Shown here piece by piece: positions 205 to 12,445 of a stretch of DNA of 37,975 nucleotides; position 1 is the stretch's first letter; each line of letters opens with the position of its first letter. Source of the DNA: a virus (Duplodnaviria; Heunggongvirae; Uroviricota; Caudoviricetes); the IMG/VR virus record IMGVR_UViG_2534681604_000008, positions 1 through 37,975 of that record; one strand, written 5' to 3'. The position numbers and the translations under genes are program-made. The notes under the pieces were generated by a model, which had not been told where the DNA came from, searched no databases, and was given only the letters and a program-made list of their open reading frames with translations.

Positions 205-232
205 GGCAAAAAGAAACCGCCATCAGGCGGCT
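205..232 (-). terminator. Candidate intrinsic terminator
   Basis: On the minus strand GCCGCC-TGAT-GGCGGT stem-loop followed by TTCTTTTT, overlapping the stop of the upstream small ORF. Confidence 0.35.
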
Positions 233-390
233 TGGTGTTCTTTCAGTTCTTCAATTCGAATATTGGTTACGTCTGCATGCGCTATCTGCGCCCACAGCAT
301 CCAGTGGTCATAGCAGTCATTGATGTTCTCTGCTTCGATAACTCTGTTGAATGGTTCTCCATTCCATTCACCTGTGACTCGGAAGTGCAT
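223..390 (-). CDS. Small hypothetical phage protein (about 55 aa, MHFRVTGEWNGEPF...)
   Basis: ORF below the track size cutoff, found by hand; GGAG about 9 nt upstream of ATG; same orientation as the early-left operon. Coordinates approximate. Confidence 0.35.
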   Translation of the reverse strand: MHFRVTGEWNGEPFNRVIEAENINDCYDHWMLWAQIAHADVTNIRIEELKEHQAA

Positions 391-478
391 TTATCATCTC
401 CATAAAACAAAACTCGCCGTAGCGAGTTCAGATAAAAGAAATCCCCGCGAGTGCGAGGATTGTTATGTAATATTTGGT

Positions 479-760
479 TTAATCATCTATATGTTTTGTA
501 CAGAGAGGGCAAGTATCGTTTCCACCGTACTCGTGATAATAATTTTGCACGGTATCAGTCATTTCTCGCACATTGCAGAATGGGGATTTGTCTTCATTAG
601 ACTTATAAACCTTCATTGAATATTTGTATGCCGACTCTATATCTATACCTTCATCTACATAAACACCTTCGTGATGTCTGCATGGAGACAAGACACCGGA
701 TCTGCACAACATTGATAACGCCCAATCTTTTTGCTCAGACTCTAACTCATTGATACTCAT
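479..760 (-). CDS. Hypothetical Cys/His-rich phage protein (possible zinc-ribbon)
   Basis: 93 aa ORF with AAGGAG RBS; contains SPCRHH and CPLC motifs. Confidence 0.5.
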   Translation of the reverse strand: MSINELESEQKDWALSMLCRSGVLSPCRHHEGVYVDEGIDIESAYKYSMKVYKSNEDKSPFCNVREMTDTVQNYYHEYGGNDTCPLCTKHIDD

Positions 761-962: not shown

Positions 963-1859
963 TCACTCTCCTTTGATGCGAATGCCAGCAAGCCAGTTTC
1001 TTATGCCGATATATTCAGCGTTCCTGAAACCGCTTTTTACATATATAAATGGCAAGCGAAGATTGTGACCATTGGCTGCCAGGTAGTCTTTACAACCCTG
1101 TTCGGTGAAACAGCAGGTAACGAATTCATCAATATCTTTCACAGCAACGCGCCGCCATTTTTCTGGTGGCTCTCGAAAGTTTTCGTGAAGTAGTTCGAGA
1201 CGACGACTTTGGCGTTTATTGGCTTCATTGCCATCTTCATCAACCCAGACAATCCGGTCATAGTCATAATCAGCATCAACAACGATTTCGCGCTTTTGAT
1301 ACACACAAAACATAGGGTCTGACGTTATTCGATTATCCTGTGTTCGAATATTTTCACCGATGATGCCAAACGAATCTGGTGCAGATTTTGTCTGCAACTC
1401 TTCGATACGTTCAGCCATCGCAGCACACTCTTCAAAGTTGCTTAATGCTTTTCGCTCCCATTCGGCGCATTGTTTTCCAAGCTCTGCAATCAGCTTGTCT
1501 TTGCCTTCCAGTTCAACACGCAGCTTCCCTACCGTTAGCGCAATATCCTTGTTCTCCTGGTCACGGCGTTTGATGTATTGCTGGTTTCTTTCCCGTTCAT
1601 CCAGTAATGCCAGCACAGTAGCCGGATTGGCTGCGGCGATGAATTCAGCATTGGCCTGCTGTTCCATTTGGAAATCTTCATCGAAACCGCTTTCTGGATG
1701 CGCTCCTTCAATTCTGCAAATGGGAAGATATCCAACAACTTCACGATGAATTAGTGCATCACCAGCATCAAATCTCTCCTCTCCATATTCGAGCGACCAC
1801 ACACCACACGTTGCTTTTTCTGCCGCTTCACGCAGTGCCTGATAGTTAATTTTGGTCAT
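963..1859 (-). CDS. Ead/Ea22-like prophage protein
   Basis: 298 aa; N-terminus MTKINYQALREAAEKAT... resembles the Ead/Ea22 family of lambdoid phages (recalled); central coiled-coil-like region. Confidence 0.55.
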   Translation of the reverse strand: MTKINYQALREAAEKATCGVWSLEYGEERFDAGDALIHREVVGYLPICRIEGAHPESGFDEDFQMEQQANAEFIAAANPATVLALLDERERNQQYIKRRDQENKDIALTVGKLRVELEGKDKLIAELGKQCAEWERKALSNFEECAAMAERIEELQTKSAPDSFGIIGENIRTQDNRITSDPMFCVYQKREIVVDADYDYDRIVWVDEDGNEANKRQSRRLELLHENFREPPEKWRRVAVKDIDEFVTCCFTEQGCKDYLAANGHNLRLPFIYVKSGFRNAEYIGIRNWLAGIRIKGE

Positions 1860-1860
1860 A

Positions 1861-2160
1861 TCACATCACCCTGAATCCGTTGCATTTACGTAAGAAATCG
1901 CAGATATAGCCCTTCATTTTTTCATGCCAATCTCGATCATTCCCATTGCACCAACCATCAGGTGGAGTCCAGTTTTCTATCAGAGCAGCAATTTTCTTTG
2001 CTTTCGCCGGAGTAGCTGTTGCGGTATCGCAGTAATGACGAGTGTCAACCAACGTATCCATACCATCGATATCAAGTACGCAAAACCATGTGTGATTCGG
2101 CATTTCAACAGATGGTATTTGTTGCCCACGTCGACGTTTATCAATAAGACATACACTCAC
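1861..2160 (-). CDS. Hypothetical phage protein (Cys/Trp-rich, GTG start)
   Basis: 99 aa ORF preceded by GGAGG; tightly packed in the leftward operon. Confidence 0.45.
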
Positions 2161-2162
2161 TG

Positions 2163-2324
2163 CTTGCCTCCTTTACGCCACATCGCATTCAGATATTTGT
2201 TTTGATTCACTGATGGAAAAGAATTTCTCTTAAGTAATTCCTCTCTCGATGGCATTGGCTTTACGCGTTGGCGAATAATCATTTCTGCCGGAAGAATGCC
2301 GGGATTGTAAGCAAGTCCTCTCAT
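2163..2324 (-). CDS. Small hypothetical protein (about 53 aa)
   Basis: Hand-found ORF filling the gap between neighbours; ATGA start/stop overlap with the upstream gene. Coordinates approximate. Confidence 0.3.
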
Positions 2325-2602
2325 GATTTACTCTCCACGAACTGGTCAATAGCCATGCTAAGTGACACACCTAAAGTCTCGATATGCTGCTGAATATCCT
2401 GTAGCGTCTGCGCCTGAGATAACAGGATTTCACGGTTGCATAACTCTTTAACCAGATGCTCAAACTTGCTGTAATAACCGATACGACTGAGCGTTTCTTT
2501 CCCTGCATTCTCGCCTTCTTTGATAATTCCTCTTTCGCTAAGAATCAGGTCGTGTTTGGTTCCGGTAATAACGTATTTTCCGAGGTCGATGTTTAGCTTC
2601 AT
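2321..2602 (-). CDS. Hypothetical phage protein
   Basis: 93 aa ORF in operon context; no family recognised. Confidence 0.45.
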
Positions 2603-2618
2603 TGTTAATTACTCCATG

Positions 2619-2933
2619 TTAATTTATTCGTATGCCTGCTCTTTCTTCATCGAGTTTTTTTAGCTTGTATCGCATAGCTCTTACTGAATAAATTGAGCGG
2701 CAGGTTGCAATTGCTATTTCTTCTGCGGAGAACTTACCGAAAAGTGATACTTCGGCTCTTGTCCATCGTCTTCCACGAAGTCGGCTAACAATGTCAGCGC
2801 CAATCCTTGTTGCTTTCGCCATTACTGCTTTTTCAGTCCTTTCCAGTTTTTCAGCGATAACTTCAACTGGCATTGTCGCCGCCACTTCGCGCAAGAAATC
2901 GACTTCCCATTTCTCCCATGGAGTCTTTTTCAT
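2619..2933 (-). CDS. Hypothetical phage protein, possible tandem HTH-like DNA-binding protein
   Basis: 104 aa; two similar segments (MPVEVIAEKLERTEKAVMAKATRIG and FSAEEIAIATCRSIYSVRAMRYKL) suggest a duplicated DNA-binding motif. Confidence 0.45.
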   Translation of the reverse strand: MKKTPWEKWEVDFLREVAATMPVEVIAEKLERTEKAVMAKATRIGADIVSRLRGRRWTRAEVSLFGKFSAEEIAIATCRSIYSVRAMRYKLKKLDEERAGIRIN

Positions 2934-2944
2934 AGGCGATACCG

Positions 2945-3433
2945 TTATTTGATAAGAAGTGATGGTTTCCCAACTTTGAGTTGAGCGCCGGGGATATTTA
3001 TTCCTGCTTTTAGTTGGTGTTTGATTGCCAGTTTGTCGGCTTTAATTGTCGTTTCAAACTCAACGTATTCAGGAGGAAGGGCGCTTGAGTCGATGATTTC
3101 TACAGTTTCTGACGGTTTGCGGATTGTTACCTGGTGAATACCTGCTCGAATCTTTTTCTTGCCAACCATTTCAAGCGATGACGCTATATATGATTTGATG
3201 CTGTCAATCTTATTTTGAATTACTTCGGCTCGCTCATTTAGTGACTTTGCCTCTTCCTTGAGGCGCTCAGCATAACCAGATTCATTTTTGATGACGGAAA
3301 GAAGTTGCTCTATTTTATCGGTAAATTCTCCTTCCATGCCTTCTATTGTGTCAGCAATCATCTCTGGCTCTAAATCTGAATCCATCAATCTTGCGTATTC
3401 ATTGGCAATTTCATATAGTTTGCTCACTGGCAA
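2945..3433 (-). CDS. Gp157-family protein (RecT-associated, sometimes annotated as Gam-like host-nuclease inhibitor)
   Basis: 162 aa, immediately downstream of recT with a 23-nt overlap; recalled resemblance to Siphovirus Gp157 family. Confidence 0.5.
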   Translation of the reverse strand: MPVSKLYEIANEYARLMDSDLEPEMIADTIEGMEGEFTDKIEQLLSVIKNESGYAERLKEEAKSLNERAEVIQNKIDSIKSYIASSLEMVGKKKIRAGIHQVTIRKPSETVEIIDSSALPPEYVEFETTIKADKLAIKHQLKAGINIPGAQLKVGKPSLLIK

Positions 3434-4322
3434 CCTCCAGTTTTGCTTTGCATTCTGCGTAAATGGCTTGTACGTTCTGCTGCAATTTCATTCCAGATGT
3501 CAGGCGATATGCTTCTGCAAAATATCGCTTCAAATCATCCATGTTTTCTGCCTGAGCCATTTCATCACAAAGAAGTTGTGCTTTTTCCATTATTTCCTGC
3601 TGGCGTTTCCGTTCATCTTCGCGGATATCTTCCTCTGATTTGTGCGGCATAACTGGTTCAGTCCACACACCTTCTTCTTCGTTTAGTACGTGAATAGCAC
3701 TATCAAGACGTGATGCCTTAGGCCAATACTTGCTTGCACGCTTTACGACCGTCTTTCGCGCCATCTCATTCCAGTGATTTACCCATGGTCCTTTATCGCT
3801 GAATGCTGCCTTGCTTGTTTTCCTTACAGCCTCAATTTCAGCCAGACTCATCTCTTCCGTTAGATAATCACCTGCTGGCGTCTTAACTGTGCAGTAAACG
3901 CCAACGATATCACCACGATCACCGAAGGCGTTGTATTTATGGGTTGGTGCTTTATCAAGCCCGTTTGACTCATAGGTATCGTTAGCATGAACAAGTTTTG
4001 CCTGACCCCATGAGATAACACCAGACTCCATTGCAATATGGAGCAATCCCATATAACTGATATCAAGGCAAACCATGCCGTCGCGCGGAACCAGATAAGC
4101 CAGTTTGCTGGCCGGGTTTAAGGTGATGCCGATTGCCGCAACATTGATGATGGCGTTCTGTGCGCTGGTTGGATTTGCCAGTGCCGTTTTAGCCAGGTAA
4201 TCGTTTTTCTGGAAATACTGAATTGCAAACTGGCTTTCCTTAGCCCATGTCACCGTCTGTTCAGTCAATGCTCCGCAGAATAACTGCTCCTGCTGTTTAA
4301 CGAATTCAACGATATTGCTCAT
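3411..4322 (-). CDS. recT: RecT-family single-strand annealing recombinase
   Basis: 303 aa; segments NAIINVAAIGITLNPASKLAYLVPRDG and the acidic C-terminus are characteristic of RecT/Bet-type annealing proteins. Confidence 0.8.
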   Translation of the reverse strand: MSNIVEFVKQQEQLFCGALTEQTVTWAKESQFAIQYFQKNDYLAKTALANPTSAQNAIINVAAIGITLNPASKLAYLVPRDGMVCLDISYMGLLHIAMESGVISWGQAKLVHANDTYESNGLDKAPTHKYNAFGDRGDIVGVYCTVKTPAGDYLTEEMSLAEIEAVRKTSKAAFSDKGPWVNHWNEMARKTVVKRASKYWPKASRLDSAIHVLNEEEGVWTEPVMPHKSEEDIREDERKRQQEIMEKAQLLCDEMAQAENMDDLKRYFAEAYRLTSGMKLQQNVQAIYAECKAKLEVASEQTI

Positions 4323-4630
4323 GCAGCTTCTCCAAAAATGTGTCTGCGTTTGAATATTGCGAAGGCATATTCAGCCTTAACTCTTTCGGTTATTGCATCC
4401 CAGAACCATTCAGCGGCTTTTTCCTGATAGTTACAGTCATCATCTTCCAGCCAGTCGATAGCGTCCTTAGTGTGTTCATCTGGTTTATATGAGCGAAGCA
4501 TTTCGCTTATTGGGTCGCAACGTTTGCAGAGGCGATCAACTTCACTGTTGATTCGTTCGTAATCATCATCGGTAAAACTTGCGATGATTTGCGATATTTC
4601 ACGCTTATCATTCAGAGTCAGAATCATCAT
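4319..4630 (-). CDS. Hypothetical acidic phage protein
   Basis: 103 aa ORF; ATGA overlap with recT start implies translational coupling. Confidence 0.45.
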   Translation of the reverse strand: MMILTLNDKREISQIIASFTDDDYERINSEVDRLCKRCDPISEMLRSYKPDEHTKDAIDWLEDDDCNYQEKAAEWFWDAITERVKAEYAFAIFKRRHIFGEAA

Positions 4631-11518: not shown

Positions 11519-11921
11519 CGCCATAGACGCCATTCTCTCACTACCCATCGACGACAAGTCACCCCACGAAGTCCACGTTAGAGAACCCAAACGCAGCAAA
11601 GCGCAGAATGACCGTATGTGGCCGATGCTGAACGATGTTTCGCGTCAGGTGCTATGGCATGGTCAACGGCTGACGCCGGAAGACTGGAAAGACCTGTTCA
11701 CTGCCTTGTGGCTTAAGACCAAAAAAATGGAGCAAAGAAGTGCGCCTGGTATCGACGGTGGCGTTGTTATGCTTGGCGTTCGTACCAGCAAAATGCGAAA
11801 GGCCAGCATGACTGAGCTTATCGAAATCATGTTCTGGTTCGGCTCAGAGCGCAACGTGCGGTGGAGTGATGACTCCCGGCGAGAGTATGAATGGTCACAA
11901 CGAAAAGGGAAGGCTGCATGA
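11475..11921 (+). CDS. ninB: NinB (Orf-family recombination mediator)
   Basis: 148 aa; alignable with lambda NinB in size and motifs (...DVSRQVLWHGQRLTPEDWKDLFTA..., ...RWSDDSRREYEW...), from recall. Confidence 0.8.
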   Translation: MKQIYILRNEAIRNNAIDAILSLPIDDKSPHEVHVREPKRSKAQNDRMWPMLNDVSRQVLWHGQRLTPEDWKDLFTALWLKTKKMEQRSAPGIDGGVVMLGVRTSKMRKASMTELIEIMFWFGSERNVRWSDDSRREYEWSQRKGKAA

Positions 11922-12445
11922 CTATCAAATCAAATACGCCAGCACACGACAAGGACTGCTGGCAAACGCCGCTTTGGCTTTTTGATGCACTGGATATTGA
12001 GTTTGGATTCTGGCTGGATTCGGCAGCGAGCGACAAAAATGCTCTGTGCGCTCACTGGCTAACTGAGGCCGACGACGCGCTCAATTCTGAGTGGGTAAGC
12101 CACGGTGCAATCTGGAATAACCCACCGTACAGCAATATCAGGCCGTGGGTGGAAAAAGCCGCTGAGCAGTGTATACAACAGCGACAGACGGTAGTGATGC
12201 TTGTGCCAGAGGATATGTCTGTCGGATGGTTCAGCAAGGCTCTGGAGAGTGTTGACGAAGTTCGTATTATCACTGATGGACGGATTAATTTTATCGAACC
12301 ATCGACAGGGCTGGAGAAGAAGGGAAACAGCAAAGGCTCCATGCTGCTGATTTGGCGACCGTTCATCAGTCCTCGACGGATGTTTACTACCGTATCCAAA
12401 GCGGCATTGATGGCGATCGGGCAGGGCGTCAGGAGGGCGGCATGA
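11918..12445 (+). CDS. Phage DNA N6-adenine methyltransferase (Dam-like), in the ninC position
   Basis: NPPY catalytic motif ([10 protein letters not shown]); ATGA overlap with the ninB stop; roughly 175 aa from the coupled start. Confidence 0.8.

Follow-up and report, generated by a model that had tools for sequence, protein, structure and literature searches.

Four translationally coupled genes at the early-left recombination boundary of a P22/Sf6-like phage are likely separate cassettes

Introduction

The early-left region of phages lambda and P22 holds Ral, Abc, Kil, and similar functions. The closest described relatives of the locus studied here lie in several phages. In Sf6, genes 24-23-22 follow an Erf/SSB/Abc2 module, overlap each other by 4 nt, and are followed by an Ead/Ea22-like gene, with gp45-gp44 of ES18 as their counterparts. 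In P22, Orf56 is located just behind the recombination module. In HK140, gp40-gp39-gp38-gp37 are found in a RecT/Gp157(MuGam) context that is also present in mEpX1, Gally, and Kapi1, and the genes of these four phages carry either the label hypothetical or names taken over from PHROG. The HK140 module has been described as a type 4 strand-annealing protein with MuGam, lacking nuclease and SSB (PMC12315714).

The window analyzed here is a 37,975-nucleotide stretch of DNA from a member of the Caudoviricetes (IMG/VR record IMGVR_UViG_2534681604_000008). Its positions 1861 to 2933 contain four small genes, which we call A, B, C, and D from upstream to downstream. Genes B, C, and D have the same order and the same 4-nt overlaps as the Sf6 trio, and the Sf6/ES18 proteins are 93 to 97% identical to those of the window; however, the Sf6 trio stands behind Erf/SSB/Abc2, while that of the window stands behind RecT/Gp157/A. 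The RecT/Gp157/A/B/C arrangement is shared with HK140 and its relatives, except that HK140 carries an HK97 gp37-like gene after C in place of D and that Gally lacks B. Gene C occupies the place of P22 Orf56. The position of gene A is analogous to that of P22 abc1/abc2, but no similarity of A or B to Abc1 or Abc2 could be detected at the sequence level, and P22 Abc1, Abc2, and EaE were rejected as relatives of A, B, and D for lack of similarity. All four genes are already on public record, as DUF or hypothetical proteins of the well-studied phages Sf6, HK140, P22, and P2, and they do not constitute a new system.

A literature search covering the DUF names, P2 orf83, Gp157/RecT, the early-left genes of P22-like phages, ORFan toxicity, and the hka genes of HK620 found no functional study, in line with an earlier sequence-only reading of this DNA, which had given the four genes no experimentally known function. 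A filamentation screen naming the neighboring hkaH/hkaJ genes was set aside, its effect being explained by the linked kil gene.

Results

The sequence-only reading had described four tightly packed early-left ORFs between recombination genes and an Ea22-like gene, and this layout was borne out. All of them lie on the minus strand. Gene A (2619..2933, 104 aa), gene B (2321..2602, 93 aa), and gene C (2157..2324) start with ATG, and gene D (1861..2160, 99 aa) starts with GTG; three of the four sizes first given were exact, the third product being 55 aa instead of about 53 aa. On the same strand, the upstream flank is formed by a gene for a RecT-family single-strand annealing protein (3411..4322; Pfam RecT, 3.7e-32; phrog_148, 2.3e-92), which is the core of the recombination module, and by a Sipho_Gp157/Mu-Gam-like gene (2945..3433; Pfam PF05565, 1.4e-38; phrog_253, "Mu Gam-like end protection"). 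An Ead/Ea22-like gene (963..1859, minus strand; Pfam PF13935, 2.3e-30) forms the downstream flank. As read from the sequence, 11 nt separate the Gp157 stop from the start of A, and 16 nt, including a GGAG Shine-Dalgarno site, separate the stop of A from the start of B. The B/C junction is an ATGA overlap of 4 nt with GGAG upstream, the C/D junction is a GTGA overlap of 4 nt with AGGAGG upstream, and a single nucleotide lies between the stop of D and the start of the Ea22-like gene. Neither a sigma-70-like promoter match nor an intrinsic-terminator match was found on the minus strand of 1861-2933, and the interval contained no Rfam match and no meaningful repeats.

We then compared the four genes with related loci, taking the 80 best-scoring loci of each search, a sample biased toward close enterobacterial relatives. 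Genes A, B, C, and D are all under purifying selection: codon variants were far more often synonymous than non-synonymous in all four (29 synonymous versus 4 non-synonymous in gene A), and the crude (n/N)/(s/S) ratios among related loci were 0.04 for A, 0.17 for B, 0.14 for C, and 0.22 for D. Together with the ORF coordinates, the Shine-Dalgarno sites, the ATGA/GTGA overlaps, and the lack of an internal promoter or terminator match, this indicates that A to D are four genuine protein-coding genes that are co-transcribed and translationally coupled.

Each of the four ORFs also matched a profile family of Pfam or PHROG, which is more than would be expected by chance. The earlier statement that none was recognizable therefore has to be withdrawn, since three belong to Pfam DUF families with near-identical members known from Sf6, P22, HK97-type phages, and P2 and the fourth to phrog_11492, together with HK140 gp39. 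NCBIfam gave no meaningful match for the four proteins, and no PADLOC-DB family was matched by A, B, C, or D at an E value of ≤0.1, in a library that covers defence and not anti-defence proteins.

Gene A encodes a basic protein (pI 10.0) that is 99 to 100% identical to HK140 gp39, to its mEpX1 counterpart, and to Gally gp26. It matched phrog_11492 (E = 4.6e-23) and phrog_323 (2.8e-20). The match to phrog_11492 covers profile positions 4 to 93 of 154, corresponding to the first two of three helix-turn-helix repeats, and the three-repeat member P0030 covers positions 4 to 153 (8.5e-69); this makes gene A a two-repeat variant within the family. By sequence comparison, its product is a predicted tandem of two helix-turn-helix repeats of the sigma-70 region 4/Myb-like kind. 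The internal duplication of DNA-binding helices previously proposed for the 104-aa protein was confirmed in this form. Indeed, although BLASTP of the two halves against each other returned nothing, hhalign detected the duplication weakly within the protein (repeat 1 versus repeat 2, E = 6.5e-4) and clearly in relatives with a third copy (repeat 2 versus repeat 3, E = 3.7e-11).

Sigma70_r4_2 was matched by 11 of 15 members of the gene A family (best E value, 1.4e-7), the family profile gave a weak match to the NarL helix-turn-helix in the PDB (E = 0.0045), and distant multi-repeat relatives matched the Myb_DNA-binding, Sigma70_r4_2, and GcrA models, the latter at 2.3e-12. Gene A itself did not reach any Pfam helix-turn-helix gathering threshold (HTH_12, 20.7 bits versus a cut-off of 21.4). 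Formal membership in the sigma-70 region 4 or LuxR-type families (PF08281 and PF00196) was hence rejected as below the Pfam threshold, and so was membership in GcrA (PF07750), which none of the 15 family members matched at an E value of ≤1. The repeat of A shares the pattern W..E..L ... EIA ... RS..SV.. with sigma-70 region 4, LuxR (NarL), Myb-SANT, and GcrA modules. Unlike the proteins that carry those modules, A consists of the paired repeats by themselves, without sigma, receiver, or effector domain.

The surroundings of gene A were constant on its upstream side. It was preceded by RecT and then Gp157 in all of the 80 best-scoring loci and started 11 nt after Gp157 in 73 of 73 assessable ones. 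Furthermore, divergent relatives were found directly behind recombination modules of other kinds (Gam/YqaJ, DUF3799, and ERF). We infer that the RecT/Gp157 recombination module ends with gene A. The two helix-turn-helix repeats of A would most likely bind double-stranded DNA, and the protein may serve the DNA-transaction genes with which it travels as a small accessory factor for DNA targeting or regulation.

The three-repeat relatives of A were followed directly by a DNA methyltransferase, to which they are translationally coupled, in 56 of 67 loci, and in one further locus, DndB was the neighbor. These methyltransferases were of at least four unrelated kinds, namely Dam, MT-A70, N6_N4, and C5, with C5 present on its own or as a fusion to an N6-adenine methylase. 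Dam itself is encoded in the nin region of both the window phage and HK140. It was absent from the examined regions of mEpX1 and SEN22, and among the 1830 phage records in which it occurred, the top-ranked matches (Stx phages) fell outside the 16 records carrying A. An obligate link between Dam and the two-repeat gene A was rejected on the evidence of mEpX1, SEN22, and the Stx phages.

Gene B belongs to DUF5405 (Pfam PF17399; 25.6 bits, cut-off 21.6), the family of Sf6 gp24, ES18 gp45, and P2 Orf83, and encodes a mildly acidic protein (pI 5.9). An hhalign comparison identified P2 Orf83 as a full-length homologue (probability 99.4%, E = 1.3e-21, 34% identity over 88 aligned columns); B is not homologous to Orf81. 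P2 Orf83 is likewise a small early gene that overlaps its neighbors, but it differs in what these neighbors are, with the TraR-like Orf82 on one side and the replication initiator gene of P2 (also named A) on the other, and in having no DUF2737 partner. In P2-like phages, the DUF5405 homologue occupies the same place, between Orf82/TraR and the replication gene, and the homologue in Morganella phage MP1 adjoins an SbcC-like gene. Gene C was not seen next to the B homologues of P2-like, N4-like, or T4-like phages. For the PHROG label "replication initiation protein" attached to DUF5405, we found no experimental basis.

The AlphaFold model of B (pLDDT 89.6) predicts a four-stranded beta-meander followed by a long helical hairpin. 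It had no full-length match in the PDB, and PDB sequence searches with the single sequence and with the family profile returned nothing. A comparison with BFVD gave 18 matches at an E value of ≤1e-3, all of them to uncharacterised proteins; TM-scores among the best reached 0.86. Given this fold, seen across many phages, and the location beside replication and recombination genes, B would probably dimerise through the predicted helical hairpin and bind a replication or recombination protein.

Gene B was present in 32 of the 73 A-anchored loci, with identical junctions, and the gap between A and the next gene was 16 nt with or without it. Among the 80 best-scoring B-anchored loci, 69 had Abc2 and 10 had A as the upstream gene. 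Gene C followed directly in 78, with an overlap of 4 nt in 77 and of 3 nt in 1, and the gene downstream of C was variable. Gene B is a clean optional cassette between the last gene of the recombination module and gene C.

Gene C is a member of DUF2737 (Pfam PF10930; 109.2 bits, cut-off 25), which includes P22 Orf56, Sf6 gp23, and HK97 gp38. Its product, 77% identical to P22 Orf56, is very basic (pI 11.0). The gene was found in all 73 assessable loci carrying A, and tblastn matched it in 702 phage records; among these are virulent Jersey-like phages, which retain the C-terminal core alone. The conserved core, P..REE.L...SFP....NK.L, was invariant in six diverse members. Gene C is thus a small, almost universally present gene, located where the recombination module meets the variable "ea" genes. 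We propose that it acts as a small basic peptide and that B and C may form a linker pair behind whichever gene closes the recombination module, be it Abc2 or A.

Gene D matched DUF7739 (Pfam PF24881; 75.4 bits, cut-off 27, residues 2 to 93), the family of Sf6 gp22, as well as phrog_1239 (4.3e-55). The 99-aa protein had been noted as rich in cysteine and tryptophan. This is true of the present copy (6 Cys and 4 Trp) but does not extend to the family, in which C93 is the only invariant cysteine among 18 members and the remaining positions vary. The cysteine content therefore gives no indication of a metal site, and a zinc-binding reading was rejected.

The AlphaFold model of D (pLDDT 91.9) predicts a compact alpha/beta fold that may resemble that of small immunity or inhibitor proteins. 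The proteins compared, CdiI of B. pseudomallei E479, Neisseria DMP12, and E. coli YfbM, share 7 to 10% sequence identity with D, and PDB sequence searches with the single sequence and with the family profile found nothing. D is near-neutral (pI 7.6), unlike acidic DNA mimics, and a DMP12- or Ocr-like role as a DNA mimic was rejected on this charge. Additionally, no cognate toxin or target is encoded beside D in the window. Such a compact, immunity-protein-like predicted fold suggests that D may bind or inhibit another protein stoichiometrically; its target could be a host protein or part of a defence system.

Gene D was found in 13 of the 73 assessable A-anchored loci and in only 21 phage records. 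True homologues are also carried by a Yersinia phage of 92 kb and by a BcepMu-like phage, in which the gene is flanked by those for the tail tube and the tail chaperone. We infer that D is a moron-type optional single-gene cassette, which is also inserted singly in unrelated phages.

Taken over the 73 A-anchored loci, the gene combinations were AC in 36, ABC in 24, ABCD in 8, and ACD in 5. The exact contiguous arrangement of the window was present in 21 of 5426 E. coli genomes and parts of it in 1617.

Discussion

Our data are best explained if the early-left (pL) operon of this temperate, P22/Sf6-like phage contains a mosaic junction, at which A, B, C, and D are evolutionarily independent and separately shuffled cassettes rather than one system; we consider this explanation as a whole likely. 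The independence of the cassettes follows from the presence/absence patterns in about 230 related loci, which speak against the single unit implied by the heading of the sequence-only reading. The conserved position beside the recombination genes could reflect shared recombination breakpoints rather than shared function. Every mechanistic statement made here on A to D draws on fold, charge, and neighborhood. Neither known non-defence roles of the four genes nor a lack of conservation was found.

The tight translational coupling, a location known for Ral, Abc, Kil, and the like, and the inhibitor-like fold predicted for D would also suit a single early-left operon for anti-defence or host takeover, for instance with A as a regulator and B, C, and D as effectors against restriction or abortive infection. 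Such an operon is very unlikely given that the genes assort independently, B being missing from 41 and D from 60 of the 73 loci that carry A, that B stands mostly behind Abc2 and not behind A, and that unrelated phages carry D by itself within tail-gene clusters; PADLOC models, which represent defence rather than anti-defence proteins, matched none of the four. The sole positive hints of host takeover or anti-defence are the predicted immunity-protein-like fold of D and its moron-like distribution. That B and C alone form an addiction pair resembling a toxin-antitoxin system, with a mildly acidic 93-aa and a very basic 55-aa partner, we find hardly credible. Their sharp contrast in charge (pI 5.9 versus 11.0), the conserved 4-nt overlap, and the B-then-C order in 78 of the 80 best-scoring loci fit such a pair, but C occurs without B in 41 of 73 loci and in hundreds of phages, the homologues of B in P2-like, N4-like, and T4-like phages were seen without C as a neighbor, and no toxin or antitoxin family was matched. 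A type II toxin-antitoxin identity was rejected because co-occurrence is not obligate and such family matches are missing. Finally, the annotation of Sf6 includes conserved boundary sequences for this region, and gene C encodes merely 55 aa, so one might ask whether all the small ORFs, or some among them, lack coding function or are artefacts of annotation, with the DNA alone conserved as mosaic "boundary sequence." This is effectively refuted by the excess of synonymous change in four of four genes, by protein-level conservation reaching homologues of 35 to 50% identity in distant phages, by the strong Shine-Dalgarno sites of B, C, and D, and by the confident structure models of B and D.

Two further readings concern mainly gene A. 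Its invariable linkage to RecT/Gp157, the presence of its relatives behind three other types of recombination module, and a relative position equal to that of P22 abc1, with a similar size, would be compatible with a functional equivalent of Abc1, that is, an accessory anti-RecBCD or recombination-stimulating factor and not a regulator; the Gally record indeed labels A "Anti-RecBCD protein 1." By analogy only, such an equivalence is conceivable but rather doubtful. BLASTP gave no alignment of A with P22 Abc1 at E values of ≤100, on which ground homology was rejected, and the three-repeat relatives are linked to methyltransferases and not to any one recombinase. Moreover, the molecular function of Abc1 is itself unknown (PMC12315714). 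The phrog_11492 family of small helix-turn-helix-repeat proteins, including A, might be tied functionally to phage DNA modification. Gene A would then be a derivative that has lost its third repeat as well as the methylase and would now serve as a methylation-linked DNA-binding factor for recombination or early-left genes, with B and D as unrecognized inhibitors of host replication/repair or defence proteins. We regard this combination as improbable; the methyltransferase link holds for the three-repeat relatives of A only.

Under the mosaic junction with independent cassettes, which we favor, the locus illustrates that very common phage genes are functionally blank: DUF2737 is present in about 700 deposited phage genomes, and the DUF5405 fold is common to phages of Gram-negative and Gram-positive hosts. 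Two misleading labels are meanwhile being propagated, with A called "Anti-RecBCD protein 1" and B called "replication initiation protein." Overall, our analysis offers sharper hypotheses for these families, in which A would be a DNA-binding tail gene of recombination modules, B and C a linker pair, and D an inhibitor-like moron.

Organization of the region and coding evidence

The interval 1861-2933 contains four small, co-oriented early-left genes on the minus strand, which we refer to in reading order as genes A (2619..2933, 104 aa), B (2321..2602, 93 aa), C (2157..2324, 55 aa), and D (1861..2160, 99 aa). Gene D starts with GTG and the other three with ATG. Eleven nucleotides separate the stop of the upstream Gp157 gene from the start of gene A, and 16 nt separate A from B, which is preceded by a GGAG Shine-Dalgarno sequence. 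The B/C junction is an ATGA overlap with GGAG 5' of the C start, the C/D junction is a GTGA overlap with AGGAGG 5' of the D start, and the next gene begins 1 nt after the D stop. No sigma-70-like promoter or intrinsic-terminator pattern was found on the minus strand inside 1861-2933, nor did this interval contain an Rfam family or meaningful repeats. Its plus-strand ORFs are antisense shadows.

All four ORFs are genes, since each matches a profile family, synonymous codon variants far outnumber non-synonymous ones in related loci, and distant phages carry homologues at 35-50% protein identity. The crude (n/N)/(s/S) ratio was 0.04 for A (29 synonymous versus 4 non-synonymous), 0.17 for B, 0.14 for C, and 0.22 for D; the flanking Gp157 gene gave 0.19.

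Family matches also confirmed the flanks proposed by the sequence-only reading, namely a RecT-family annealing protein (3411..4322, minus strand) and a Sipho_Gp157 or "Mu Gam-like" protein (2945..3433, minus strand) upstream, and an Ead/Ea22-like gene (963..1859) downstream, beyond which lies an ea8.5-like gene (479..760). The recombination module (2945..4630, minus strand) consists of RecT, the Gp157/Mu-Gam-like protein, and a 103-aa acidic protein (4319..4630, minus strand; phrog_3486), whose gene shares 4 nt with the start of RecT and is found in nearly all related loci; no exonuclease or SSB was recognisable in this module. Just 3' of the ea8.5-like gene, two successive terminator-like hairpins with T-tails (410..461, minus strand) precede a small gene (223..390) and a xis-like gene; the early-left transcript plausibly ends or is attenuated at these hairpins. 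The best overall matches of the window are Sf6, HK620, and vB_EcoP-683R2, and the whole window represents a phage or prophage of the P22-like, Lederbergvirus type.

Families of genes B, C, and D

None of the four products had been thought recognisable, but B belongs to DUF5405, C to DUF2737, and D to DUF7739, and A matches phrog_11492. We found no functional study of any of them in the literature searched. Gene C gave a Pfam score of 109 bits, shares 77% identity with P22 Orf56, has counterparts in Sf6 (gp23) and HK97 (gp38), and was detected by tblastn in 702 phage records, Stx phages included; virulent Jersey-like phages keep its C-terminal core only.

Gene B scores slightly over the Pfam threshold, has counterparts in Sf6 (gp24) and ES18 (gp45), and occurs in 160 phage records, N4-like phages and one T4-like phage among them. 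It is homologous to P2 Orf83 (hhalign, 99.4%), the gene for which sits, in P2-like phages, between TraR-like Orf82 and the P2 replication gene A. DUF5405 proteins commonly carry the label "replication initiation protein" via PHROG 154 (Sf6, HK140, ES18, and P2 RefSeq). No experimental basis for this label was found, and it may stem from the adjacency to the replication gene in P2-like phages. In the structural model of B (pLDDT 89.6), a beta-meander of four strands leads into a long helical hairpin. Searching the viral structure library BFVD gave 18 matches at E<=1e-3, with top TM-scores up to 0.86, from phages of Salmonella, Morganella, Providencia, Bacillus, Lactobacillus, and Cellulophaga. 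All are uncharacterised, and those of the Bacillus, Lactobacillus, Cellulophaga, and Providencia phages are about 85-108 aa long. Their occurrence in such diverse phages indicates that the DUF5405 structural family, as judged from predicted models, reaches far beyond the Pfam family, which is enterobacterial.

Gene D (75 bits) has a counterpart in Sf6 (gp22) and is rare, with 21 phage records. Its predicted fold (pLDDT 91.9) resembles, with modest scores, small single-domain proteins, among which DMP12 and CdiI act by binding another macromolecule. A DNA mimic was ruled out because the protein is near-neutral (pI 7.6), and a metal-binding Cys cluster because a single Cys is invariant in the family.

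Gene A carries two helix-turn-helix repeats

Gene A matched no Pfam family above threshold and missed every Pfam helix-turn-helix (HTH) threshold, while matching two PHROG families, phrog_11492 (4.6e-23) and phrog_323, the latter labelled "transcriptional regulator, D5-like." Near-perfect counterparts, at 99-100% identity, are HK140 gp39 and genes in mEpX1, Gally, Kapi1, and elsewhere. In a recent survey of lambdoid recombination modules (PMC12315714), the HK140 module comprises a type-4 strand-annealing protein and MuGam, and the gene behind it is left undiscussed. In Gally (locus L001, OV696608, 4850-5164), the identical protein is named "Anti-RecBCD protein 1, similar to P22 Abc1." With P22 Abc1 as the subject, BLASTP gave no match; homology was therefore rejected, and the name seems to have been transferred on the basis of position.

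The internal duplication noticed in the 104-aa protein is faint within the protein itself: its two halves gave no BLASTP match to each other, and hhalign aligned repeat 1 with repeat 2 at E 6.5e-4, in register across the HTH core. It becomes plain through relatives of 151-153 aa, which have a third copy homologous to repeat 2 (E 3.7e-11). Sigma70_r4_2 was matched by 11 of 15 family members (best 1.4e-7), and the family profile matched the NarL DNA-binding domain in the PDB (E 0.0045). An exhaustive profile search retrieved 2563 proteins at E<=1e-3, many with 3 to 10 copies, and the multi-copy relatives scanned match Myb_DNA-binding, Sigma70_r4_2, and GcrA models as well as phrog_323. By these profile matches, the repeat of gene A is an HTH unit. 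Together with the basic character of the protein (pI 10.0), this points to a DNA-binding role, and gene A probably contacts DNA through its two HTH units.

Three-repeat relatives are coupled to methyltransferases

Because an adenine methyltransferase gene came next in all of the first four three-repeat relatives looked at, 79 such IMG/VR loci were fetched, and the 67 with a full-length three-repeat gene (about 150 aa) were counted. A Pfam-confirmed DNA methyltransferase lay immediately downstream in 56/67 loci, usually with a 4-nt overlap. The next gene was Dam in 31 loci, a C5 methylase fused to an N6-adenine methylase (D12 or Dam type) in 13, MT-A70 in 7, N6_N4 in 4, and C5 in 1; elsewhere it was TraR (3), DUF5405 (2), DndB (1), or unassigned (5). 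The methylases are of several unrelated kinds, and the upstream recombination module also varies. Five loci (L107, L112, L114, L131, and L134) have no methylase directly after the three-repeat gene and carry a DUF5405 or TraR/DksA-type zinc-finger gene 80-100 nt downstream; both families are also neighbours in the P2-like early operon. No methylase directly followed the two-repeat gene A in any of 73 loci. Set against the three-repeat proteins, gene A aligns as though only their third repeat were missing, the C-terminal tail being kept. We found no description of the three-repeat/methyltransferase association in the literature searched; a functional tie or a common slot for insertion could account for it.

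The nin region of the window encodes, with NinB and NinX on either side, a Dam-family N6-adenine methyltransferase (11891..12445, plus strand; PF05869, E 7.6e-65). Its identity to the Dam genes that accompany three-repeat relatives is about 50%. HK140 also has Dam in its nin region. No Dam was found in the regions examined of mEpX1 and SEN22, and an obligate link between gene A and a phage Dam is therefore not supported.

The four genes assort independently

Among the 80 best-scoring IMG/VR loci anchored on gene A, the order RecT, Gp157, A was invariant. In the 73 with enough downstream sequence to score, the gap from Gp157 to A was always 11 nt and C was always present, with B in 32 and D in 13. 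When B is present, it lies 16 nt after A and overlaps C by 4 nt; when it is absent, the A-C gap is also 16 nt, which marks gene B as a cassette that is cleanly inserted or deleted. Gene D directly abuts C in only 4/13 loci. The combinations were AC (36), ABC (24), ABCD (8), and ACD (5). Of 80 loci anchored on B, 69 had Abc2 and 10 had A as the 5' neighbour; C was the 3' neighbour in 78, and the gene after C was HK97 gp37-like in 34, D in 7, and others in the remainder. Of 5426 complete E. coli genomes, 1617 have parts of the region and only 21 the contiguous arrangement. Divergent relatives of A directly follow recombination modules of a different make-up, with Gam/YqaJ, with DUF3799 and a 189-aa protein, or with ERF and a 93-aa protein, and homologues of D elsewhere are lone insertions in unrelated settings. 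In the BcepMu-like phage PhiKM, a homologue (L101, 2501-2782) separates tail tube from tail chaperone genes; another, in the 92-kb Yersinia phage fHe-Yen8-01 (L102, 2501-2809), is annotated as particle-associated and is only a few genes away from an ADP-ribosyltransferase toxin that is also particle-associated.

The description of the genes as tightly coupled thus stands for their translation and fails for the four as one unit. Gene A is the terminal gene of the recombination module, (B)-C is a linker behind whichever gene ends that module, and past it comes a variable set of "ea" morons, in the window D and Ea22. A single four-gene anti-defence system is unlikely given this independent assortment, and the same co-occurrence data make a toxin-antitoxin pair formed by B and C improbable.

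Gene A would act as a targeting or regulatory accessory to the DNA-transaction genes with which it travels, in either recombination or transcription; an Abc1-like role is possible as a functional analogy only. Going by its neighbours only, gene B might tentatively be pictured as dimerising via its hairpin and binding a replication or recombination protein. Gene C is a small basic peptide with a presumed partner. From its modelled fold and moron behaviour, gene D might tentatively be taken to bind another protein stoichiometrically or to inhibit it, the target perhaps belonging to a defence system.

Overall, the observation that drew attention to the region was correct, and the four are ordinary uncharacterised phage accessory genes. 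They and their families are already catalogued, near-identical copies exist in well-known phages, and the A-B-C-D arrangement is one of many mosaic combinations. Their modest interest rests on the commonness of DUF2737 and of the DUF5405 fold, the inhibitor-like predicted fold of D, and the methyltransferase coupling of the relatives of A.
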